Assembly: GCA_027319565.1 (NCBI GenBank)
Contig: DAHVNA010000033.1
Location: 4,982 to 21,695 of the forward strand
Direction: 5' to 3'
Source: Elusimicrobiota bacterium
GTDB taxonomy: Bacteria > Elusimicrobiota > Elusimicrobia > UBA1565 > UBA9628
Length of the DNA: 16,714 nt
The notes below the pieces were generated by a model. The model did no database searches and had not been told where the DNA came from. It saw nothing but the letters and a program-made list of their open reading frames with translations. Positions within the stretch are counted from its first letter, which is position 1. Each line of letters begins with the position of its first letter. Of the stretch, positions 3,809-16,577 are shown one piece after another. Made by a program: the position numbers and the translations under genes.

Positions 3809-5158
3809 TTAGGCGGTAACGGATTGTTTTTTCCAATAATCCTGGCCCGCGGCGGAAAGGGTATAGACCGGATCATAATATTCATAACGCCGGGTCAAGG
3901 CGTCGGGATCGTTTTTTTCGATCGATGTCCGGTAATTTTTAGTCCAGTAGGAAATCCCTTTTTCCCGATCATAGGCGTCGACTTGATGGACCCATCTCTT
4001 TCCCACCAAGGGAACGTCGCAGACAATTCTAGGAGTCGCAAAACCCGGAAGATATCCCATGATATCGTGCTGAAGCCTTTGGGCTTCGTCAATAGAAACC
4101 CTCCAATGCTCGGAATTAGGAATCATATCGCAAACATAAAAATAATAAGGCATGATTTTCGCGTGATCTAAAAGGGTAAAACAAAGCTCCAAAAGGTCTT
4201 GCGGCGTCGCATTGACCCCCCGCAAAATGACCCCTTGATTGCGCACATCCCGAAAACCCAGCTCCAAAATCTTTTTTGCGGCCTTGGCGACCAAGGGAGT
4301 GACCTGCGCGGCGTTATTGGCATGGGTGTGAAGAGCGATATCCACTCCGCGCTCGCGCGCTTTTTTGGCCAGACGCTCAAAAGCCCTTAAAACCTCATCC
4401 TGCAAAAAATGTTGCGGAAGGCCCTGAAGCCCTTTGGATGCCAGTCGAATGTCGCGAATGTTAGGGATATCCATCAAAGACGAAACAAAGGCTTCCAGCT
4501 GCGCGATTGGGACATTGGCAATATCGCCGCCAGAGACGACCACGTCCCGGACCGCGGGAGTTTTTCTTAAATAGTCGAGCATGAGATCAAATCTTTTTTG
4601 CGGAAGAAGCTCGAATTTTCTTTTCTGGACCTGGGGCACAGAATTGCCGACCAAATCCATTCTAGTGCAATGCCCGCAGTATTGAGGGCAGGTCGAAATT
4701 AACTCCGCTAGGACCTTGGTGGGATAGCGGTGAGTCAAGCCCTCAACGGCCCACATCTCGCTTTCATGCAGGCTGTCTCGCCCGGCCTTTGGGTGGTTCG
4801 GCCACTCAGAATGGCGATCCGAAATCATCGGAATCATGTAGCGGCGCACGGGATCATGGCGCAAATCTTTTTCATTGATCGTGTTGAGCATCTGCGGCGG
4901 AATCAGCATCGACATCGTCGCATATTCTTTTTGATCGCACTCGATTTCCAAGGCCAGGTCATCGGTCAAATAAGCGCCTAGGGCATTTTTAAGCTCTTTA
5001 AGATTTTTGACCGAATGCTGCCGCTGCCACAAAGCGCTCTCCCACTCCGAAGAAGAGACGTCTTTATAGCCGGGCAAACGCCGCCAGTCCGGCTCGACAA
5101 ACGCGCGTTTAAGCGGGTAGGAAAACGGCTGCGAATTTTTCTGGCTCAAGTTCCCCAT
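3809..5158 (-). CDS. kamA: KamA-family radical SAM aminomutase (lysine 2,3-aminomutase-like)
   Basis: GLTHRYPTKVL, CxxxCxxC motif CPQYCGHCTR, DVVVSGGD, NQGVILRGVN, PYYFYVCDMI, and likely PLP lysine in DVPLVGKR. The C-terminus (GISYWTKNYRT...YEYYDP) resembles the actinobacterial/myxobacterial subtype as I recall it. Substrate not proven. Confidence 0.9.
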   Translation of the reverse strand: MGNLSQKNSQPFSYPLKRAFVEPDWRRLPGYKDVSSSEWESALWQRQHSVKNLKELKNALGAYLTDDLALEIECDQKEYATMSMLIPPQMLNTINEKDLRHDPVRRYMIPMISDRHSEWPNHPKAGRDSLHESEMWAVEGLTHRYPTKVLAELISTCPQYCGHCTRMDLVGNSVPQVQKRKFELLPQKRFDLMLDYLRKTPAVRDVVVSGGDIANVPIAQLEAFVSSLMDIPNIRDIRLASKGLQGLPQHFLQDEVLRAFERLAKKARERGVDIALHTHANNAAQVTPLVAKAAKKILELGFRDVRNQGVILRGVNATPQDLLELCFTLLDHAKIMPYYFYVCDMIPNSEHWRVSIDEAQRLQHDIMGYLPGFATPRIVCDVPLVGKRWVHQVDAYDREKGISYWTKNYRTSIEKNDPDALTRRYEYYDPVYTLSAAGQDYWKKQSVTA

Positions 5159-5165
5159 CTCCTGA

Positions 5166-5171
5166 ATTATA
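5166..5171 (-). promoter_or_regulatory. -10 element TATAAT, 7 nt upstream of the kamA-like ATG
   Basis: Minus strand reads TATAAT-tcaggag-ATG. Confidence 0.6.
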
Positions 5172-5173
5172 AC

Positions 5174-5746
5174 TCAGTATCCCATGGGATTAAAAGAGCG
5201 CAGAAAATCGATAAAGGTATCGCGATAATCTAAATAGACCGAACGCGTGCTGGAAAGAGTGATAATCCAATAACTTCTCCCGCGCGGCAAAATAGCCACG
5301 TAAGAATGAAGATGCTTTTTGATCGATGGAAGGCGTTCGCTGGGAAGCCAGCGGTTTTCATTGATTTCAAACATTCGAGCGAAAGTGTCGGCTCCTCTGA
5401 CCACGCGCAACAAAGTGGAAGAGCGCCCGGTCAGGGAATCGGATGCGCGCATTCCCTCCACCGCCTTGGTTAGCGGCACAAACCCGGGGCGGCTGGAATC
5501 AAACCAGTGGATGTCAATTCCGGTTCGGTAAACCCCGGTGGGGTCATCCGGCCCCAGGATATGGACGACATAACCCATCTGATCTTTTTCGCTAAAGGCC
5601 ACCCAACCCTTAGGCAAGGTGCAGGAGAAATCCCGCCAAGGCGAGACGTAATCAGTCGAATTATCCGAACCCGCGAACGCCGAACATCCTAGCAGTAAAA
5701 TTGCCGTCAAAAGCCCGAGTTTTTTCCCAATTCTTTTAAGGAACAT
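5174..5746 (-). CDS. Exported or lipoprotein hypothetical protein, possibly PsbP/DcrB-like fold
   Basis: Start reassigned to the ATG at 5746 (AGGAG SD upstream; MFLKRIGKKLGLLTAILLLGCSAFA signal with possible lipobox LLGC). FSCTLPKGW near the N-terminus and the terminal YWIITLSS...FIDFLRSF pattern resemble PsbP-like proteins. The start overlaps the upstream gene's 3' end. Confidence 0.65.
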   Translation of the reverse strand: MFLKRIGKKLGLLTAILLLGCSAFAGSDNSTDYVSPWRDFSCTLPKGWVAFSEKDQMGYVVHILGPDDPTGVYRTGIDIHWFDSSRPGFVPLTKAVEGMRASDSLTGRSSTLLRVVRGADTFARMFEINENRWLPSERLPSIKKHLHSYVAILPRGRSYWIITLSSTRSVYLDYRDTFIDFLRSFNPMGY

Positions 5747-8090
5747 AAGGCGCTCCTGTTTTCTCGCGGAAATTTTTCTCGGCCAAGGCCGCCTCATCCA
5801 TCAATTGATTGAGGATGTTGGACCCCATGAACTCCTTCTGCCAATAATTGATGCATTCCCGGCGAGATGGAATTTTTTTGTTGGCCTCAATGGCCGTAGC
5901 CCTAAAATCAAGGCTGTTGAGAGCCCGTTCAAAATCGCTTTCGCTAACGAAATGAGCTTTCGCCAAGGACATCGCTTCTTTTTTAGTCGAATCGATACTC
6001 TCCGACTCTTTGAGCGCGTTTTCCTTGCCTAAAGATTTCGGACAGGCGACATATGATTTCCGGATAAAATAATCGCGGCGGGAAGGGCCGATATGGCGCA
6101 AATCCCAGAGTGAATTTTGCCCCGAGGCCAGGGAATGGATGATAAAATCATGAAACCGCGCCGGATGGTTGAGCCAATCCTCAAACAAAGCCCGCATCTG
6201 GGGATCGAGAAAGTCCGCGGTCTTAGCCCCGTCTTTAATCTGGGCGTAGAGAAGCATCTGCGCGGAATAGGCATAGGACTGTTCTTGATAGGGAAACGCC
6301 GACCAGCCCTCAATTTGGGCTTCCAATTCCAACAGCCCATGGAGCAAAAAGCCCGCCATCTCAAAAGAAGAATAATTTCCGCGTTCGCTTCCATCGGAAT
6401 AAATCTGGGTCTTGGTTCCCCAATCGCCGGACTCAACTTTATCCGGGCGAGCGGAAAGGTCTAAAGCCGCAACCGACGGAACCGGGACCCCCATCGTCTG
6501 ATAGGCGGCAGACGACACCGGAAGCATTGCTTTCCAGTCTTCAAAAATAAATTCCCGCTTTGAGGCCAGAACCGGATTGGGGTTAATGGCAACGGTGGCT
6601 TCAAAACGCCCCTCTGAGTTCTGTTTTAAAAATGTCTTTTGATGAGCCTCTTTTCCCATTTGATCCGAATCGATGACGATTGCCGGCATCAAATTCATCA
6701 CGATATTTAAAGCTCTTGAGCGAAACGGCTCTTGGGCGTCGGTGTTAATAAGCCTCAATAGGCCCTTCGGGTCTTCGGAATAAGGAGCGCTCAACAAAAA
6801 CTTTTCGAAATCGGCGGGAGAAACCGCGCTTAAAGGAGGCAAGGCATAACTCTTTAAAGGCGGAAGAGGCGTTGGCCCCTTTGGTTTTGAAACCCCATAC
6901 TCTCTGGACCCAATGACGCTGGAAGAGGCCAAGGCCTGGCGAATGGAAGCAACCGTCACTTGAGATAAAGTGGCAGAAGAATTGAAGACTTCCACCGAGG
7001 CTTTCGCCGTGGACGAGGAAATTGCCGTGGAAACGGGAGAATGGACGAGCGGTTGAGAAATAGCGGCGGGGCTTGAAATAGGCGCGCGAACTGCGGATAC
7101 GGCTTGGGCCGCCACGGACGCGGGAAGAGAAAGCGCATGAGTCGCCGCCGCGACAGGAACCGCTGCCAAAGAAGAGGCTTGCCCCAACGCCGCTCCTGAA
7201 CCCGCGGCAACCGCTGCCGCGGGCGGCAAAGAAGAAAGCGCATTTGAGGGAGAAATCAATTGTGGAGACGGCTTGACCGCCAAGGCCGGAGCGCTTGGAA
7301 GCGCCGGAGCCGCAGCAGTTTGAGTCGCAACCGGCGCGGGCATCGGAGATTGCGAGACCAGCGGCGCCTCGACGGGCGGCGGAGCCGCAACTTCGGAATT
7401 GGAAGGCGAGACAGGAGTTAAAGCCGGGCTTTGAGTTTGCGGCAAAAACGGAGCGGGAGATGCGACCAAGGGAGAATTTTGAATAGGGGCAAACGCCTGC
7501 TGCGGGGCCAAGGGTATTGCGGGCGCGCTCTCGGGAGAGGCCTGAATTTGAGACAAAAACCCGGCGGGAAGCGGCGGGGGCGGCGGGGTTCCCAAAGGCG
7601 CTTGCGACAAAAGGTCGGGATCGGAATCTTCATCGGGAGGAGTTAGATTGAGAGAATATAATTCTTCTCTTGAAAAATAGCGCGAGAAATGTTTGCGGTT
7701 ATCGATCGTAAAAAAAGGCCACACATCTTTAAGAATATGGCGCACTTTTTTGAGCTCATCCGGAGTCAGATGTCCATTGGGATTTTCCGAAAGGATCAAA
7801 TCGATTTTGAGCATCGCCTTTAAGCGCTCGGTGCTTTTAAGCCGGCGAATGAGAACCCGAATTTGGGATTTGCGTATTTCTTCCTTGCGAGAGGGAGACC
7901 ATATCGAGCCGTCGGAATGAACGAAATAGTGGTTGTCCATCAACAAATGGATCACCGGACGCGGCAACGGATCGGCTTTGACATTGTAAAACGGATCGGA
8001 AGGATTTTCCAAACGCGCGTCCATCGGCAAAGCCGCGAACACGCTCTGATTCCAAAGGAAAATAGACGCCAAAATCAGCCGCCTCATCAC
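5736..8090 (-). CDS. Exported 784-aa hypothetical protein: N-terminal domain, long Pro/Ala/Ser-rich linker, C-terminal degenerate zincin-like domain
   Basis: Long ORF with signal peptide (MMRRLILASIFLWNQSVFA), low-complexity central region of roughly 250 aa, and a C-terminal region with LLHGLLE and DPxxRxxF...P..F.D aligning by eye to the HExxH protein at 10523. Confidence 0.75.
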   Translation of the reverse strand: MMRRLILASIFLWNQSVFAALPMDARLENPSDPFYNVKADPLPRPVIHLLMDNHYFVHSDGSIWSPSRKEEIRKSQIRVLIRRLKSTERLKAMLKIDLILSENPNGHLTPDELKKVRHILKDVWPFFTIDNRKHFSRYFSREELYSLNLTPPDEDSDPDLLSQAPLGTPPPPPLPAGFLSQIQASPESAPAIPLAPQQAFAPIQNSPLVASPAPFLPQTQSPALTPVSPSNSEVAAPPPVEAPLVSQSPMPAPVATQTAAAPALPSAPALAVKPSPQLISPSNALSSLPPAAAVAAGSGAALGQASSLAAVPVAAATHALSLPASVAAQAVSAVRAPISSPAAISQPLVHSPVSTAISSSTAKASVEVFNSSATLSQVTVASIRQALASSSVIGSREYGVSKPKGPTPLPPLKSYALPPLSAVSPADFEKFLLSAPYSEDPKGLLRLINTDAQEPFRSRALNIVMNLMPAIVIDSDQMGKEAHQKTFLKQNSEGRFEATVAINPNPVLASKREFIFEDWKAMLPVSSAAYQTMGVPVPSVAALDLSARPDKVESGDWGTKTQIYSDGSERGNYSSFEMAGFLLHGLLELEAQIEGWSAFPYQEQSYAYSAQMLLYAQIKDGAKTADFLDPQMRALFEDWLNHPARFHDFIIHSLASGQNSLWDLRHIGPSRRDYFIRKSYVACPKSLGKENALKESESIDSTKKEAMSLAKAHFVSESDFERALNSLDFRATAIEANKKIPSRRECINYWQKEFMGSNILNQLMDEAALAEKNFREKTGAPYVP

Positions 8091-8151: not shown

Positions 8152-10344
8152 TTATGGGCGGAGAAAAAAAGCCTTTGACAGGACAAAATTAACCGGGCCG
8201 GGAGCGTAAATTTGACCCAGAATCAAGGCCGACATCAAAATCGAGACGGCGTTGGTCAAGACCCAGTAAATATTGCCTTGGGCGAGGGCGACGACTAGGC
8301 TGAGCGCGCTGCCGGAAATGACTAAAACCGAAAGAAGCGGGCTCAGGCCTTCGGGAGATTTTCTTTCCGCGCGGTAGAGTTTTAAATTAGCGGCAATTTG
8401 AGGAATGTTTAAAACCGTCAAAAGCCCCAAAGCGGCCCCGAATAAAACCGCAGGAAAAGAAATTCCGCCGAGAACCGCGGCTAGAGAGCCCACGGCGACG
8501 GAAAGCGCGCTTAAAGCGCCCCGAACCCCTTTGTGATTGTAAAGGAGAATCTGGGAAATCAAGACCGAACTTTCCAATAGTCCCGAGAGATTGGAGGCAA
8601 CCCAAAAGGGGCTTGAGTGTTGGATCAGAGACAAACCCAGAAACAAGGCCGAAGCCGCCGCCCAAATCAATCCGGCTTTAAGCGACAAGTCCTTGGTCGC
8701 CGCCGACTTCCATCTGAAATTTTTGACGATCTGCGGAATTCCGGCGGCACTGAGAACGGTTGCTCCCGCCCCCCCCAAGGCTGAAACGGGATGATGCAGG
8801 ATGCTCGTCCAAGGAACTTCCGACAACGCCGCCATGCTTAATCCGCCCAAGGCAAAAGAGGAGGCCGCCCAATACTGAGCCTTTCTCTTCAAAGCGCTTT
8901 CTCTTTTCGGAGCCGGCAATCTCAAGAGTTCCCGCATCACTAAATCCGTTCCCGCAGTTCGCTCGCCAAGCCATAATACGCTGGGCGGCAGGGTTCCGCG
9001 CAAATCTTTTCCAACGCTAATTGACATCGACTTGGGAAAAGCCAAGGCCATCTTCGCGTCTCCCCCCATGGTTCCATTGGGAAAAAGATGGAACTCATCT
9101 CCGACAAAAAGAAGATTTTCTTCCGACACCGGAAATCCCTTTTCCCGCATCGCCGAATAAATCAGGGCCGCGCCCGTCCCTTTATCGAATTTATTGAAAT
9201 AGACAAAATCTCCGCCATGAATGACGGGAAAAAGAAGGCCACGGCTTTTGAGATTTCTATCCAAAAGTTCGGCGAAGGGAGTCGAACGCGGGTCCCCATG
9301 GCGATTAAAGCGCACCAGCATTTGAGACGGCAGGTCGCGGCTGATATTGACCTCTTTGGGAGAAATCTTTAACTCGGATAAGGCCTCATCTATGATGGAA
9401 GATATTTTCTCTTTCTCATCTTCGCTCCAGTCCCTGTCCAAATAGCGAACCGGCTTTCCATTTTTAAACGCGATAAATTCGCTTCCCGCACCGCCGACGA
9501 AAAAGAGATGACTCCGCAGGGATTCCGGAATTTGGCTGATCAAGGGTTCGATGGTGTTGGCGAAATTGGCGCTTATAGGCTGGCGATCAAAAGTGCGGCT
9601 AGTGATAATCGCGATCGGCCAACCCCGTTTAAGAAGAGTCTTAATTCCCTCAATCAAATTCTTCGCGGGCGGAAGGCTAATCCCCTGCTCGTTGACCTCG
9701 GTCAAGGTTTTGTCGTAATCGAAAAAAACGGCGGACGGCGGACGCTGACGCAATTGCGCCAAAATTTTTTCGCCGTCCAAGGGCGCCGGAATTTCTCCCG
9801 TTCCTGGATTTTGAATCTGTTTGGGAGAAGACGGCGAAAGGCGCGGCGAGGAATTTAAGGGGGTCGAATCGGGAAGAGAAATTAAATCAGAAGCGCTCTC
9901 TTTGACCTGACGACCGGAGACGATGCTCCAGATTCGGCGACCGACGGAAAAGGCGGAAAACCCGGAGGAAGGGTGCGACAGTTTTTTAACTTCCAATGAG
10001 ACGCCTTTCTGGGTTTTGAAAAGAGTTCTAGACCATGTAGAGAGCCGGGGCGAGGATGCGGCAACAGCCTTAGCGGCGCTTAGAGGAATTCGGGCCGGCG
10101 CGGGAGAGTTCGGTAAAGAAGATATCTGCGGCCCTTCCGTCTTAAGAGAAGCGGATTTTTCAACGGGTGCGGAAAGATCCAAGGTTGTGGGATTTTGACC
10201 TAGAGGCAAAGAAGAGAGGGCATCTCCCATTACAGGCGTGGGATTAACAATGTCTGGTTCAACAGGGCGTTCGGCCGCCAGGGCCCCGGATGAAAGGCTC
10301 CAGGACAGTAGAATCGAGAGAACAGCGGTGTGGCGAGTTTTCAA
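8152..10344 (-). CDS. Fusion protein: signal peptide, Pro/Ser linker, HAD-IIB hydrolase domain, C-terminal double PQ-loop (SWEET-like) membrane domain
   Basis: TTG start with GGGGGAGG SD. HAD motif I FFDYDKTLT (9706-9720), motif II IAIITSR, motif III FDKGTG, motif IV LFVGDE...GGD. Two PQ repeats GIPQIVKNFR..KDLS (PQ at 8731-8736) and NIPQIAANLK..EGLS (PQ at 8398-8403), each followed by two hydrophobic helices, the second with WVxxN. Confidence 0.82.
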   Translation of the reverse strand: MKTRHTAVLSILLSWSLSSGALAAERPVEPDIVNPTPVMGDALSSLPLGQNPTTLDLSAPVEKSASLKTEGPQISSLPNSPAPARIPLSAAKAVAASSPRLSTWSRTLFKTQKGVSLEVKKLSHPSSGFSAFSVGRRIWSIVSGRQVKESASDLISLPDSTPLNSSPRLSPSSPKQIQNPGTGEIPAPLDGEKILAQLRQRPPSAVFFDYDKTLTEVNEQGISLPPAKNLIEGIKTLLKRGWPIAIITSRTFDRQPISANFANTIEPLISQIPESLRSHLFFVGGAGSEFIAFKNGKPVRYLDRDWSEDEKEKISSIIDEALSELKISPKEVNISRDLPSQMLVRFNRHGDPRSTPFAELLDRNLKSRGLLFPVIHGGDFVYFNKFDKGTGAALIYSAMREKGFPVSEENLLFVGDEFHLFPNGTMGGDAKMALAFPKSMSISVGKDLRGTLPPSVLWLGERTAGTDLVMRELLRLPAPKRESALKRKAQYWAASSFALGGLSMAALSEVPWTSILHHPVSALGGAGATVLSAAGIPQIVKNFRWKSAATKDLSLKAGLIWAAASALFLGLSLIQHSSPFWVASNLSGLLESSVLISQILLYNHKGVRGALSALSVAVGSLAAVLGGISFPAVLFGAALGLLTVLNIPQIAANLKLYRAERKSPEGLSPLLSVLVISGSALSLVVALAQGNIYWVLTNAVSILMSALILGQIYAPGPVNFVLSKAFFLRP

Positions 10345-10373
10345 TCGAGTTCCTCCCCCAAAAAGATTAATCT

Positions 10374-10522: not shown

Positions 10523-11488
10523 ATGGACGCATTGAAGCGATCACTCATTTTATTTTTCCCGTTGGCATTGGGACCTTTGGCGCATTTATCTTTTGCGGCA
10601 AACCTAACGCCGTCGCGTTTTTCGGATTGTCCGTCTCTTCAAATTCCGGCGCTGACCAGTCTTGATTTAAAAAATCCGGCTTTAGATCTGGTTTCTCCGA
10701 TGGAAAACGCTTTTCAATCCCAAGAGGAGACTCTTGAAAAAATGGCGGGGCTCAAATTGCTCAAAGCCACAAAAATCCAAGAAGCGCGGCTTAAAGAAGT
10801 GATCGCTTTAGCCCAGACGACCCCCACGGGACGCCGGATTTTAAGGAAAATGAGGAAACTTGCCAGTCAATCTGGAAGTTACCCCATCGTTTTTTCCTCG
10901 CTAGGAAAAAATCTCGGACAGTATGATTATGCCTCTCAAACCCTCGAACTCAACCGCCAGTTTCTCCATGAGGACATAAGGCTATCGGTCTCAACCCTAA
11001 TTCACGAAATGACTCATATCCTCCAGCATTCCCAAAACGTGCCGGCGGAATCTCTTGAAATGGAACTTGAGGCATATTTGGTTCATATGAAAACTCTTAG
11101 GGAACTTAAAATGCCGGTCAAGGATTGGGATCCTTTCTCGCGACAGGCCTTTAAGCTCGTTAAAAGCGATCCTCAAAAATATATTGATTGGATGGCGGAA
11201 CAGCATCCGGGAAAGTTTCTCCTCAAAGACGGCAATAGCGAAGAACTCGCGGATTTCCAAGAGCAAGAACTTGAACGCCAAGATAAACTCATCGAGCATC
11301 TCAATCGAAAAATAGAAGAAAACCCCAAGGATATCAATCTCAAAAAGAAGAAAAAGCGCGCGCGGATTATTCTCTCCTGGATTGAAAGAGACATCGCTTT
11401 ACTGCGTTCCCCCAAGGCTTTGGCCCGCTACCGCCGGTTTTCAAAGCGCGTCCATTCGCTCCTGCGGCGCTTAAGCGATAGGCTATAA
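10523..11488 (+). CDS. Exported HExxH (gluzincin-like) putative metallopeptidase with a C-terminal coiled coil
   Basis: Signal peptide (MDALKRSLILFFPLALGPLAHLSFA), TPTGRRIL, GQYD...LELN, TLIHEMTHILQ, downstream ELEAY (candidate third zinc ligand), and a charged helical C-terminus. Confidence 0.75.
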   Translation: MDALKRSLILFFPLALGPLAHLSFAANLTPSRFSDCPSLQIPALTSLDLKNPALDLVSPMENAFQSQEETLEKMAGLKLLKATKIQEARLKEVIALAQTTPTGRRILRKMRKLASQSGSYPIVFSSLGKNLGQYDYASQTLELNRQFLHEDIRLSVSTLIHEMTHILQHSQNVPAESLEMELEAYLVHMKTLRELKMPVKDWDPFSRQAFKLVKSDPQKYIDWMAEQHPGKFLLKDGNSEELADFQEQELERQDKLIEHLNRKIEENPKDINLKKKKKRARIILSWIERDIALLRSPKALARYRRFSKRVHSLLRRLSDRL

Positions 11489-13362: not shown

Positions 13363-13818
13363 TTATTGCGGCTTTGAGCGAACCATCAGGGACCAAACGC
13401 CGCCCTGGACGATATCGGAATGTTGGTTGGAGAGATCCGCATTTAAAAGGACAAAACCTTGGGCCGGGCCCACGCGCTTAAGCTTGAAAACTTCCATCTT
13501 CAAAGAAACGGCGTCTCCAATGAAAATCGGTTTTTTAAATTTCCATTCGCCGCCGGTAAAAGCGATGATGGTCTCTCGAATGATGCCGGTCTCATGCAAC
13601 AGCCCGCTGGCCACCGAAAGACCTAAAAGCCCGTGCGCGATTTTTTTCCCAAAAGGGCTTTTTCGGGCGAAGGCCTCGTCAAAATGGAGGGGATTCATGT
13701 CCCCCGAGACGCGACCGTAGTCCTCAATCATTTTTTCAGTCACGGTCCTCGAAACGGGGCTGGTAAAAATTTGTCCGACAGAGAAGTCTTCAAAATAAAG
13801 GCTTTTCATATTTCCCAC
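13363..13818 (-). CDS. MaoC-family (hot-dog fold) enoyl-CoA hydratase/dehydratase
   Basis: LYFEDFSVGQ, RTVTE, hydratase motif SGDMNPLHFDEAFARKSPFGKKIAHG, FKKPIFIGD. Start is either GTG 13818 or ATG 13809. Confidence 0.92.
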   Translation of the reverse strand: MGNMKSLYFEDFSVGQIFTSPVSRTVTEKMIEDYGRVSGDMNPLHFDEAFARKSPFGKKIAHGLLGLSVASGLLHETGIIRETIIAFTGGEWKFKKPIFIGDAVSLKMEVFKLKRVGPAQGFVLLNADLSNQHSDIVQGGVWSLMVRSKPQ

Positions 13819-13874
13819 TTATATAGGATATCTCAATTTGCGCGCCGTTCACAAATCCAATCGGCGATGACATC

Positions 13875-14354
13875 TTAGGCGGCCTCAAAATGGAGAATAT
13901 CGGAGAGTTTGCCTTGGCGATTTTCCGCAAAAACAGGTTTGACTCGAATGCCGATGGCTGGCGGCCAATCGGGATCGACTTTAAGAAAATGTTGAAACTG
14001 GGTCGAAGCCCCATCCAAAAGGATGAAGGCATATCCGTAGGGAACCGGCTTTTTCTCTCCGGTTTCCGGATCGATAAACGGAAAGCGTAAAATCGTAAAG
14101 GCCGACAATGTCCCCATGGGACCGACCTCGACCCACTCATCCATTGTTTTAAAGCAAGGCCCGCAAATTTTTCGCGGCGGAACGTAGACCTTTCGGCAAG
14201 ACGGACAGCGCAGCCCCAAAAATTTCATATGATCTCGGAGCTGGGCAAAAAACCGGCTTCCCTCCATCCCAACGGAATACTGAAACGGCTGAAAAGCGTC
14301 ACCGCTCTCGATAAAGACAAAATCAGATCGTTTAAGACGGTTTTTCTGAACCAT
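13875..14354 (-). CDS. DUF35-type Zn-ribbon/OB-fold acyl-CoA-binding protein
   Basis: YSVG...SRFF..LRD, CPSC...VYVPPR..CGPC zinc ribbon, GTLSAFT, ILLDGAST.F.H, GIRVKPVF...RQG..SDI.HF. Confidence 0.92.
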   Translation of the reverse strand: MVQKNRLKRSDFVFIESGDAFQPFQYSVGMEGSRFFAQLRDHMKFLGLRCPSCRKVYVPPRKICGPCFKTMDEWVEVGPMGTLSAFTILRFPFIDPETGEKKPVPYGYAFILLDGASTQFQHFLKVDPDWPPAIGIRVKPVFAENRQGKLSDILHFEAA

Positions 14355-15486
14355 AAATTAAAATGTCAGACCAGAAACATCCTCCAAATCCCGTCGACAA
14401 AGCCTTTTTGACTCCCTGGGCTTGGCGCTCGCCCGCCCGCCCCATGATTTGATGCGCGCATTCAGCCGCGCGAATAAGCCCGGTCGCTCCGATGGGGTTG
14501 GTCGATAAAACCCCGCCGGACAGATTAATCGGAAGAGATCCTCCCGCGTCGGTAACGCCGTCCCAAATTAATTTCGCCCCTTCGCCGGGCTTGGCTAGTC
14601 CCAAGGCCTCAATCCAAGATAAATTAGCGAAGGAATAGGGAGTGTAGAGTTCCATTAAATTGATTTCTTTTAACGGCTCTTTAATTCCGAGTTTCGCGTA
14701 AAGTTCTTGCGAGGCCAAAACAAGGGACTTGAGCGGATACCAATCGACATCGCCTAAATAGGCGTAGGGATGGCGGTTGGCCGCCCCTAGAATCCAAGCG
14801 GGCTTGGGACAAATTTTTTCGGCGTAATCCTCATTGGCGAAAATAACCGCGCAGGCGCCGTCGGTTCGCGGACAAATGTCCAAGGCCTTGATCGGATCCG
14901 ACAACAGGGGAGCGCGCAAAACTTCCTCAATGGTCACTTCTCTTCTCAAATGCGCGTGGGGATTTTTAACGGCATGCTTGCGGTCTCGGATGACCGCTCG
15001 CGCCGCGTCTTTTTCGGTGACGCCAAATTTCTTCATATACGCCGAGGCCTCCACCGCAAGGCCCGAAATCGCGCCGGCAAAGACCAGGCGATCCCACACC
15101 GGATCAAAGGCGGTCGTGATCGCTCCGGTGGTATCCGATTCGGAATTTTTTTCCCAGCCGATGACCAAAAGCTTGTTGAAAAGCCCCGAGGCGGTTAAAT
15201 GATATCCCCCAATTGCCAGCGTGCTTCCGGTGGTGCCGCCGGTGGTGAGTTTGATCGTGGGTTTTAAAATGCCGCCGTTTCCGGAAATCGACCACAGCTC
15301 AACGCCGTTAATTCCTTCAAAATGGTCCATATTCCCGATGACGACCCCGTCGATATCCTCCATCGTCAAATCCGCATCCTCAAGCGCGCGGGAAACCGCT
15401 TCATGAATCAATTCAATTCCGGTTACGTCAAAACGATTTCCGTTGTGATCGGTCTGCCCACAGCCGACAATGGCGGTTCTTTTCAT
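14332..15486 (-). CDS. Thiolase-superfamily (SCP-x type) protein, Ltp3-like, lacking the acylating Cys
   Basis: Start reassigned to the ATG at 15486 (MKRTAIVGCGQT; TAATG coupling with the upstream stop). TTGGTTGST replaces the usual CASG; also NPHAHLR, CPRTDGACAVI, LPINLSGGVLSTNPIGATGLIR. Confidence 0.88.
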   Translation of the reverse strand: MKRTAIVGCGQTDHNGNRFDVTGIELIHEAVSRALEDADLTMEDIDGVVIGNMDHFEGINGVELWSISGNGGILKPTIKLTTGGTTGSTLAIGGYHLTASGLFNKLLVIGWEKNSESDTTGAITTAFDPVWDRLVFAGAISGLAVEASAYMKKFGVTEKDAARAVIRDRKHAVKNPHAHLRREVTIEEVLRAPLLSDPIKALDICPRTDGACAVIFANEDYAEKICPKPAWILGAANRHPYAYLGDVDWYPLKSLVLASQELYAKLGIKEPLKEINLMELYTPYSFANLSWIEALGLAKPGEGAKLIWDGVTDAGGSLPINLSGGVLSTNPIGATGLIRAAECAHQIMGRAGERQAQGVKKALSTGFGGCFWSDILIYGSEKPS

Positions 15487-16577
15487 TAGTTTTCCAAGAC
15501 CCACACCGCATGAGACTGACCGCAAAGCCCGTATTGTCCATGGGCCACGGCGCGTTTGGCGTTTGAGATTTGATTTGAAGCCTGTCCGCGAAGCTGCAAG
15601 GACGCCTCGATCATCCGAACCAGGCCAGAAGCAATCCAGGCGTGAGCCGATAGACATCCGCCGGAAAGATTCACTCGGTTTAAATTCCGGTAATTGAGTT
15701 CTTCAAGCCACAAAAGTTCCTGATAGGAAAATTGTTCGGAAAGTTCTATTAAGTCAATCTGGGCCGTCGGATTGTCAATTCCGGCCATCTGATAGGCTTG
15801 ACGCGCCGCCAGTCTTAAGGCCTTCGATTCTGCGAGATTTCTTTCCCCTAGGGGAGCGTCGGCGCAAAGGCCCACCCCCCGAACCCAAATCGGGCGCTCG
15901 CTCTTTTTTTGGGCAAAGCTTTTGCTCGCCAGAATAATCGCGGCGGCTCCATCGGAAGACGGACAAACGTCGGTCTCTTTGAGCGGAGAAGCCAACAGCG
16001 GAGAACGCAGAGCCTCGTCAATCGTCAAGGGCTTCCTAAGATGGGCCTTGGGATTTTTGGCCCCATTGGCCCGGTTTTTAACGATTACATTTCCGCACTC
16101 GATATTGCCGATGTTTTTTTCTCTTAAGAAAACCCGCGCCTGAAGAGCGGCGGAGGAAACCCAATCAAGCCCCAAAGACCTCTCGGTCAAGGGATCGAAA
16201 AAAGCGTTGGTGAGCAGCCGTAAATCTCCTTCCGAGGATTTGGAATGGGCGACCACCAAGGTGGTATCGTAGTTTCCCGATAGAATGCGGCTAAGCCCGT
16301 AAAACGCGGCAAAGGTTCCGTCCCCTTCAACAGTTGAAATGCTTTTCCCGCCGCCAAAAGCCGCGCCGCAGGCGTCTCCGACGGCCATGCTGGAAATAGT
16401 TCTCCCATCGAAAAAATCGTTGGAAGCGGTGACAATATTGTCGATATTGGCGATGGAAAGCCTCGCATCCGACAGGGCCGCAGCCGTCGCTTCGTAAACC
16501 AGATCGGCATATGTTTGGTCTTTCCGATTGGAGCTAAACGCGGTTTGACCGACCCCAATGATCGCGACCGGCTCCAT
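15486..16577 (-). CDS. Thiolase-superfamily (SCP-x type) protein, Ltp4-like, lacking the acylating Cys
   Basis: VAIIGVGQT, SNDFFDGRTISSM, STVEGDGTFAAFYG (no Cys), NPKAHLR, CPSSDGAAAIILAS, VNLSGGCLSAHAWIASGLVR, AVAHG. Confidence 0.88.
   Translation of the reverse strand: MEPVAIIGVGQTAFSSNRKDQTYADLVYEATAAALSDARLSIANIDNIVTASNDFFDGRTISSMAVGDACGAAFGGGKSISTVEGDGTFAAFYGLSRILSGNYDTTLVVAHSKSSEGDLRLLTNAFFDPLTERSLGLDWVSSAALQARVFLREKNIGNIECGNVIVKNRANGAKNPKAHLRKPLTIDEALRSPLLASPLKETDVCPSSDGAAAIILASKSFAQKKSERPIWVRGVGLCADAPLGERNLAESKALRLAARQAYQMAGIDNPTAQIDLIELSEQFSYQELLWLEELNYRNLNRVNLSGGCLSAHAWIASGLVRMIEASLQLRGQASNQISNAKRAVAHGQYGLCGQSHAVWVLEN

Follow-up and report, generated by a model that had tools for sequence, protein, structure and literature searches.

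The seven-helix carriers of the SWEET/PQ-loop clan, such as AtSWEET13 (Protein Data Bank (PDB) entry 5xpd), OsSWEET2b (5ctg) and cystinosin (7zk1), share a fold of two triple-helix repeats joined by a linker helix (3+1+3). Bacterial clan members with seven helices are already in print (20 proteins in section 6 of PMC5972207; see also PMC5742349), and the extracts of these two surveys mention no PQ-loop carrier fused to an enzyme. In the Pnu carriers, partner kinases encoded by separate genes trap the substrate, as with PnuC and NadR or PnuT and a thiamine kinase (extract of PMC5749112). Here we describe a gene from an Elusimicrobiota bacterium (assembly GCA_027319565.1, contig DAHVNA010000033.1) that joins a HAD phosphatase to a carrier of the PQ-loop/SWEET fold. 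The gene occupies positions 8152..10344 on the minus strand of a 16,714-nucleotide stretch of DNA, hereafter the window, and its 730-residue product comprises a leader, a low-complexity linker, the phosphatase domain and a carrier of probably eight helices. An initial annotation of this DNA had called the 3+1+3 arrangement mainly eukaryotic, a view that the printed bacterial members qualify.

Like the SWEETs, the carrier has two PQ motifs, an Asp-x-Ser after helix 1 and an Asn in helix 3; it differs from them in its probable extra amino-terminal helix, in its attachment to an enzyme and in its pocket, where the Trp typical of the family is replaced by Phe/Leu and Ser/His and a new conserved Trp stands four residues before the Asn. 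The likeness to the Pnu systems (again from the extract of PMC5749112) would lie in facilitated diffusion directed by a change in phosphorylation, in a seven-helix core with an extra amino-terminal helix and in a nucleoside-like cargo, which for the fusion we infer below. Unlike those systems, the fusion has a phosphatase as its partner, in the same chain, and matches PQ-loop rather than NMN_transporter profiles (no match to PF04973); the WxxW(x)3D/N motif of Pnu helix 6 has no counterpart in its carrier, and PnuC is not present among the 50 fold matches listed for the carrier model.

The fusion is a single gene found across one order

The HAD-carrier fusion is real: both folds are present, the catalytic residues are kept and the arrangement is spread through the order. 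The gene is one open reading frame (10344-8152, minus strand, 730 codons) that begins with TTG, six bases 5' of which lies GGAGGA, a hexamer resembling a ribosome-binding site (10351..10356, minus strand). Across four sequencing runs we found no indels or joints in the gene, and contigs from runs X1, X3 and X4, all of one study and with X1 possibly the source, cross the HAD-carrier junction with 0 differences. These junction-spanning contigs, together with intact fusions in other genomes, rule out an assembly or frameshift artefact, and the single frame reported by the initial annotation is thereby confirmed. In one genome (G003) the fusion is split where two overlapping contig ends coincide.

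When 1.84 billion representatives were searched by profile, 45 matched with an E-value of 1e-30 or below; 38 representatives have a full-length carrier, although these relatives are not independent counts. Elusimicrobiota account for 25 of the 27 named relatives. Within the order, 12 of 101 genomes, from 7 genera and 2 families, have HAD and carrier in one match, and in a thirteenth a contig break interrupts the fusion. In a 251-genome sample of the phylum, the full carrier turned up in this order alone (11 genomes, with five more short, weak matches). A locus search with the fusion gene as single sequence gave no match, and its look-alikes in the atlas belonged to generic clusters of HAD and PQ-loop proteins. 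P0006, a single-member form with a TPR/SpoIID-like front on the same HAD-carrier unit, was set aside as possibly chimeric. Over 13 fusions spanning 24-57% identity, the identity of the HAD domain tracks that of the carrier (rho 0.73, Mantel p 0.0002), a pattern that could also stem from shared genome ancestry.

Literature searches covered open-access text, and papers were judged by title and the start of the abstract; they yielded neither a description of a HAD-PQ-loop fusion nor one of a PQ-loop protein that carries nucleosides, in line with the earlier remark that the architecture is not known to have been characterised. The fusion is conserved and apparently undescribed, a putative case of enzyme-coupled facilitated transport for which a cargo and a direction can be predicted.

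The phosphatase domain is a C2-capped HAD

Residues 196-480 (8905..9759, minus strand) form the HAD domain, as judged from profiles, a fold model and alignment. In the model (pLDDT 93), a cap interrupts the Rossmann core after motif II and before motif III; this C2-type cap (residues 308-384; 9193..9423, minus strand) runs helix-strand-strand twice, and its last strand bears two aromatics, F380 and Y382. Superposition by VIA-align onto C2-capped HADs gives Z scores of 18-22. The motifs read D209-x-D211-x-T213, T248-S-R250, K388, D416-E-F and D429. Among 18 close relatives, D209, D211, T213, R250, K388, D416 and D429 are invariant, and the catalytic set (D209, D211, T248, K388, D416, D429) is invariant or T/S in every one, so that the four intact motifs seen by the initial annotation hold beyond this sequence. 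The model clearly marks the domain as a C2-capped HAD phosphatase with intact catalytic residues.

Assignment to a named family is another matter, as no HAD family in the Pfam and NCBIfam profiles is passed at its curated cut-off: scores are 22.1 bits against 25 for ISN1 (PF06437), 25 against 41.8 for HAD-IIB (TIGR01484), 11.5 of 27 for Trehalose_PPase (PF02358) and 13.1 of 68 for TIGR00685. The expected HAD profile match is therefore borne out in fold and motifs and not in family. ISN1, a nucleotidase acting on inosine monophosphate (Plasmodium 6rme, yeast 8j6h; extract of PMC7320144), is the top match in both Pfam and Foldseek, and one relative (P0010) clears the ISN1 profile at 35 bits. ISN1 shares with the fusion a C2 cap, a GD[EQ]F motif IV and an aromatic residue at position -6 from the motif III Lys. 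In the Plasmodium enzyme this aromatic is W365, which stacks on the base, and motif IV is D394-Q-F396 (PMC7320144). By spacing, rather than superposition, Y382 takes the place of W365, with an aromatic there in 15 of the 18 relatives; D416-E-F418 corresponds to motif IV, and F418 is kept in 17. Sequence searches of the PDB gave no useful residue-level alignment of the domain to ISN1, and a weak, word-based search for free-standing HAD relatives 148-538 residues long returned none at E 0.001.

The carrier has a SWEET fold and an altered pocket

The membrane domain (residues ~490-730) was modelled with a pLDDT of 80. Repeat 1 spans residues 519-602 (8539..8790, minus strand; P537-Q538, W561, F568, W581, N585) and repeat 2 residues 631-713 (8206..8454, minus strand; P648-Q649, S682, W694, N698), both placed by Pfam and the model, with the linker helix TM4 of the model between them (residues 606-629; 8458..8529, minus strand). 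Pfam PQ-loop profiles score 43 bits over two stretches, and 23.4 and 26.4 bits for the individual repeats against a cut-off of 22, in agreement with the two repeats and linker described earlier. The model superposes on AtSWEET13 with Z 18.8 (root-mean-square deviation 2.9 over 199 residues), on OsSWEET2b with 18.7 and on cystinosin with 18.1, and Foldseek agrees; the SWEET fold proposed by the initial annotation is thus recovered by model superposition. An eighth transmembrane helix, TM0, probably precedes the first repeat, giving a 1+3+1+3 arrangement. It lies at about residues 492-510 (8815..8871, minus strand), follows basic residues, has a mean hydrophobicity of 1.1 (up to 2.8 in relatives) and is modelled at a pLDDT of about 50.

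In SemiSWEETs, glucose is sandwiched by helix-2 tryptophans, with an Asn in helix 3 (section 7 of PMC5972207). Assigning pocket positions by the spacing given there and by alignment of 37 carriers, we find the two Trp places occupied by F568 and S682 in the fusion, and Trp at neither in any of the 37. The helix-3 Asn of repeat 1, N585, is present in 35 of 37. In 30 carriers position 682 is His and the Asn lies at 697, whereas the genus of the window genome has Ser682 with Asn698; accordingly, the WVxxN motif noted earlier in each repeat is present here, although its second-repeat spacing (WxxxN) is kept in 7 of 37 carriers, the other 30 having the Asn one residue earlier. W561 and W694 show no variation and W581 almost none. 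On sequence grounds, the pocket is not a standard sugar pocket.

Partners of related carriers point to nucleosides

Among the 38 full-length carriers, 17 have a carboxy-terminal uridine-kinase-like partner (two partial) and 11 an amino-terminal HAD; an adenylate kinase is the sole partner in one and an exonuclease in another, and for eight, some of them cut off, no partner was detected. HAD and kinase occur together on none of the 38, and none has a Pfam-named sugar enzyme as partner. Best matches of the kinase are uridine kinases (PDB, 7e-26; NCBIfam udk in 22 of 22, below cut-off). Extra tails include a cytidine deaminase in three representatives (Pfam) and an adenylate kinase behind the kinase at two loci (L032, L041). 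Two proteins (P0045, P0048) are ordered exonuclease-HAD-carrier, which fits a path from nucleic acid to monophosphate to nucleoside and supports the HAD domain as a 5'-nucleotidase.

Carriers without an enzyme (L014, L030, P0044) and HADs without a carrier (L012, L034) also occur; adjacent separate HAD and carrier genes were found in none of the loci scanned. As a weak hint, a gene with an adenosylhomocysteinase NAD-binding domain precedes two enzyme-free carriers that are close relatives of each other. In an unrooted carrier tree, HAD-fused L008 nests among kinase-fused carriers (support 97/97), which implies that partners were swapped at least twice; one genome (G008) holds carriers of both kinds. 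The HAD-fused proteins L007, L008, L009, L047 and L057 have the pocket His and Asn in common with the kinase-fused carriers. Separately, in one carrier-kinase gene (L022:3041-5311) the kinase continues in another frame (4692-5267), a frameshift or assembly error.

Loop charges point to a cytoplasmic phosphatase

Three features passed over by the initial annotation, namely TM0 and two amino-terminal segments, bear on the sidedness of the protein. Residues 1-24 (10273..10344, minus strand) have the shape of a signal peptide, with a basic start, a hydrophobic core and an Ala-x-Ala end; residues 25-195 (9760..10272, minus strand) form an Ala/Pro/Ser-rich low-complexity linker in which a short helical motif around 104-151 is conserved. 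A hydrophobic start and an Ala/Pro/Ser linker also head most of 46 related frames, in a simple scan a few of whose picks are not true starts. In the window genome, where the scan took in 25 of 30-odd candidates, similar leaders precede a ClpB-like ATPase (C28:11984-14698), FtsH, a LOG-family enzyme (C15:43784-45124), MscS, two weak matches to the MFS transporters (C23:196928-198793, C111:38689-40878) and plainly exported enzymes; the ClpB-like, LOG-family and MFS-like proteins also have the low-complexity linker. LOG-family enzymes are counted among the cytosolic-type enzymes.

By the positive-inside rule, the side of a membrane on which a loop lies can be read from its charge. Mean Lys+Arg counts over the nine segments of the 37 carriers are 2.0, 0.0, 3.7, 0.2, 2.5, 0.3, 3.1, 0.1 and 2.1, and because they alternate, the segment before TM0 and the carboxy terminus are read as inside. 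This arrangement would place the HAD domain in the cytoplasm, which also suits the ATP-using kinases of the relatives.

A nucleoside release valve is the favoured, tentative reading

We favour, tentatively, a model in which the fusion is a nucleoside release valve, with a cytoplasm-facing nucleotidase feeding a passive carrier in a mirror image of kinase trapping. The HAD domain, set on the cytoplasmic side by the loop charges, would act as a 5'-nucleotidase and take the phosphate off a nucleoside monophosphate, as the partners and the exonuclease-HAD-carrier chains suggest; the carrier, whose nucleoside cargo is predicted from the partners of the same carrier in relatives, would allow outward diffusion of the uncharged nucleoside. 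The carrier itself would be passive and the attached enzyme would set its direction, such that kinase-fused kin import and trap whereas the phosphatase-fused form releases. The leader would direct the protein to the membrane while the HAD domain stays on the cytoplasmic side. Such a valve might serve in pool overflow or in disposal of damaged nucleotides. The window genome's separate NupC-family importer, thymidine kinase and deoxynucleoside kinase, and its own OtsA and OtsB, also count in favour of release. We prefer nucleosides to sugars because the pocket Trp is replaced in both repeats and the named partners are mostly nucleoside or nucleotide enzymes; taken jointly, release and the two other nucleoside readings weighed below (scavenging and delivery) are probable. 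The initial annotation had coupled HAD hydrolysis of a sugar phosphate or nucleotide to flux of free sugar: the architecture and the idea of coupling stand, given the co-divergence of the two domains, but free sugar is a less likely cargo than nucleoside and a nucleotide the better-fitting substrate, with sugar phosphate kept in play by the VIA-align ranking given below.

If the model is true, bacteria use the SWEET/PQ-loop fold to move nucleosides, and a passive carrier can be made to run either way by exchange of a fused kinase for a fused phosphatase. Nature would then have supplied, in a single gene, a test of vectorial metabolism, and the compact 250-residue nucleoside facilitator could help in engineering the export of nucleosides. 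Being small and foldable, the protein also lends itself to study of the signal-like leader that heads cytoplasmic-type enzymes and transporters in this lineage.

Alternative substrates, topologies and roles

Several features of the protein, its genus and its wider family weigh against the release model. Those of the HAD domain would suit a phosphatase that acts on trehalose-6-phosphate or a hexose phosphate and whose free sugar product the carrier would export, a reading that we consider improbable. VIA-align ranks trehalose-6-phosphate phosphatase first (Z 22.2), with alpha-phosphoglucomutase at 21.5 and ISN1 at rank 30 (Z 18.5); in Foldseek the E-values of the first two are nearly tied with that of ISN1, and another profile search puts trehalose-6-phosphate phosphatases first, weakly. 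OtsB and Lactococcus alpha-phosphoglucomutase (6upb, 4bnd) have the same cap type and the same DYDxT motif I, and the motif II Arg, also like that of the trehalose enzymes, is invariant in fusion HADs, unlike ISN1. ISN1 D363 and D367 bind ribose and base (PMC7320144); the fusion has no Asp at these spacings, which hold F380 and N384, although a one-residue shift (D379) is possible, and aromatic stacking suits sugars also. The domain is, moreover, 11-21% identical to ISN1 and membrane-bound, and the fusion bears no sign of the ISN1 regulatory and oligomerisation domains. On the carrier side, plant SWEETs are the best matches and N585 and N698 are present; an archaeal SemiSWEET adjoins a trehalose phosphatase (extract of PMC5742349), and the window genome makes trehalose, encoding its own OtsA and OtsB. 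Standing against sugar are the absence of the pocket Trp from both repeats, the lack of any Pfam-named sugar enzyme among the partners, and the Trehalose_PPase score of the HAD domain, far under the cut-off, when the separate OtsB reaches 136.9 bits and has cap motifs that the fusion's HAD lacks. The near-equal Z scores for AtSWEET13 and cystinosin suggest that the fold cannot tell cargo. The genus differs from its kin in one half-pocket, so that the cargo guess transfers less well from them. As far as the models go, structure does not settle the HAD substrate, and the nucleotidase assignment rests on the carrier partners.

A second set of observations concerns topology. The Sec-signal shape of residues 1-24 is at odds with the loop charges and with the presence of such leaders on cytosolic-type enzymes, and TM0 is weakly hydrophobic in the genus of the window genome (0.99-1.54) and poorly modelled, so that a periplasmic HAD domain is possible. 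With a true signal and a TM0 that does not cross, the protein would be a scavenger whose HAD dephosphorylates nucleotides outside and whose carrier imports the nucleoside for salvage. Carrier-less relatives of the forms leader-exonuclease-HAD (L034) and leader-HAD (L012) would fit such a role, as would a parallel with e(P4)/NadN and PnuC; the window genome, moreover, encodes thymidine kinase, deoxynucleoside kinase and nucleoside phosphorylases. This scavenger is nevertheless unlikely: basic residues precede TM0 and none lies in its exit loop, TM0 is strongly hydrophobic in most relatives, leaderless carriers included, similar leaders occur on ATP-dependent enzymes unable to work in the periplasm, and the genome already has a NupC-family importer.

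Delivery of the protein into another cell would reconcile the signal-like leader with cytoplasm-side enzymes. The leader would route the fusion into a host or prey membrane, with the HAD domain in that cell's cytoplasm, and nucleosides would leak to the producer; the lineage-wide leader would then head a SWEET-fold effector of nutrient theft, with a built-in exonuclease in some relatives. In keeping with this proposal, giant proteins of Omnitrophota that combine HAD, LOG-type and AAA domains have been proposed to act in predation (extract of bioRxiv 2023.11.21.568195), and five leader-bearing multi-helix proteins of the window genome have more Ala/Gly/Ser-rich helices than 113 others (p 0.002, in one of four measures). 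Overall helix hydrophobicity differs little in the same comparison (p 0.07), however, the sample is five, and MFS helices are Gly/Ala-rich anyway. Kinase-fused carriers share the leader, yet trapping in a prey membrane would be no help to a predator, and genes for making purines and pyrimidines de novo (among them purC, purE and pyrF) are present in the genome. We regard delivery as highly doubtful, both as a mechanism and as a theft strategy of the lineage.

The two domains might also share no substrate, being strung like beads behind a common leader in a polyprotein. The wider HAD family is paired with many unrelated domains (ClpB, M13/M48 peptidases, signal peptidase II, a nucleotidyltransferase, MFS), its largest frames reaching 17,755 codons, and Elusimicrobiota are rich in huge proteins (extract of PMC11573180). 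Some carrier tails are equally off-theme: P0045 ends in a beta-lactamase-like domain, another tail is CDP-diacylglycerol-synthase-like and two are unnamed. The HAD-carrier pair, by contrast, keeps one order and a short linker, co-diverges and recurs across the genera and families listed above, and the carrier's direct partners are nearly always this HAD or a nucleoside or nucleotide kinase, which makes a polyprotein without a common substrate quite improbable. Three further points count against release itself: giving up nucleosides looks wasteful, no match to the uridine-kinase family was found in the window genome (92% complete) or in five congeners, and the neighbours of the fusion gene have no nucleotide or sugar link.

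Genomic context and related genes

Scanning 120 of 139 candidate neighbour frames revealed no conserved operon context outside the genus. In the window, two genes on the minus strand, encoding a 784-residue signal-like Pro/Ala-rich protein (5736-8090) and a 207-residue protein (5174-5797), have no match in Pfam or NCBIfam; frames of the same sizes come after the fusion gene in three congener loci. Divergent from the fusion gene lies a signal-bearing DUF6782 metallopeptidase-like gene (10523-11488, plus strand), which is present in G001 and G002, whereas the G005 locus has no frame of its size. Further off are a KamA-type radical SAM protein that scores under all aminomutase cut-offs (3809-5158, minus strand) and a single run of two thiolase-like genes, a ChsH2-like Zn-ribbon/OB-fold gene and a MaoC dehydratase (13363-16577, minus strand).

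Elsewhere in the window genome, the product of otsA (C78:1648-3912) has a membrane-anchored, sensor-like amino terminus, with a hydrophobic start, a second helix and, by eye, a HAMP-like segment; otsB is on another contig. A leader-bearing protein of 4,659 residues (C56:31671-45677) has no Pfam match, and a frame considered as PQ-loop-like (C56:30097-31701) was not supported and is very unlikely to be one. In the order, related HADs fused to MFS transporters (L013, L035, L073, L074, L077, L079) form a second phosphatase-plus-carrier design, and three frames of 1,900-2,400 codons (L066, L067, L072) join a ClpB-like ATPase to one or two HADs, one of them also to an M48 peptidase.

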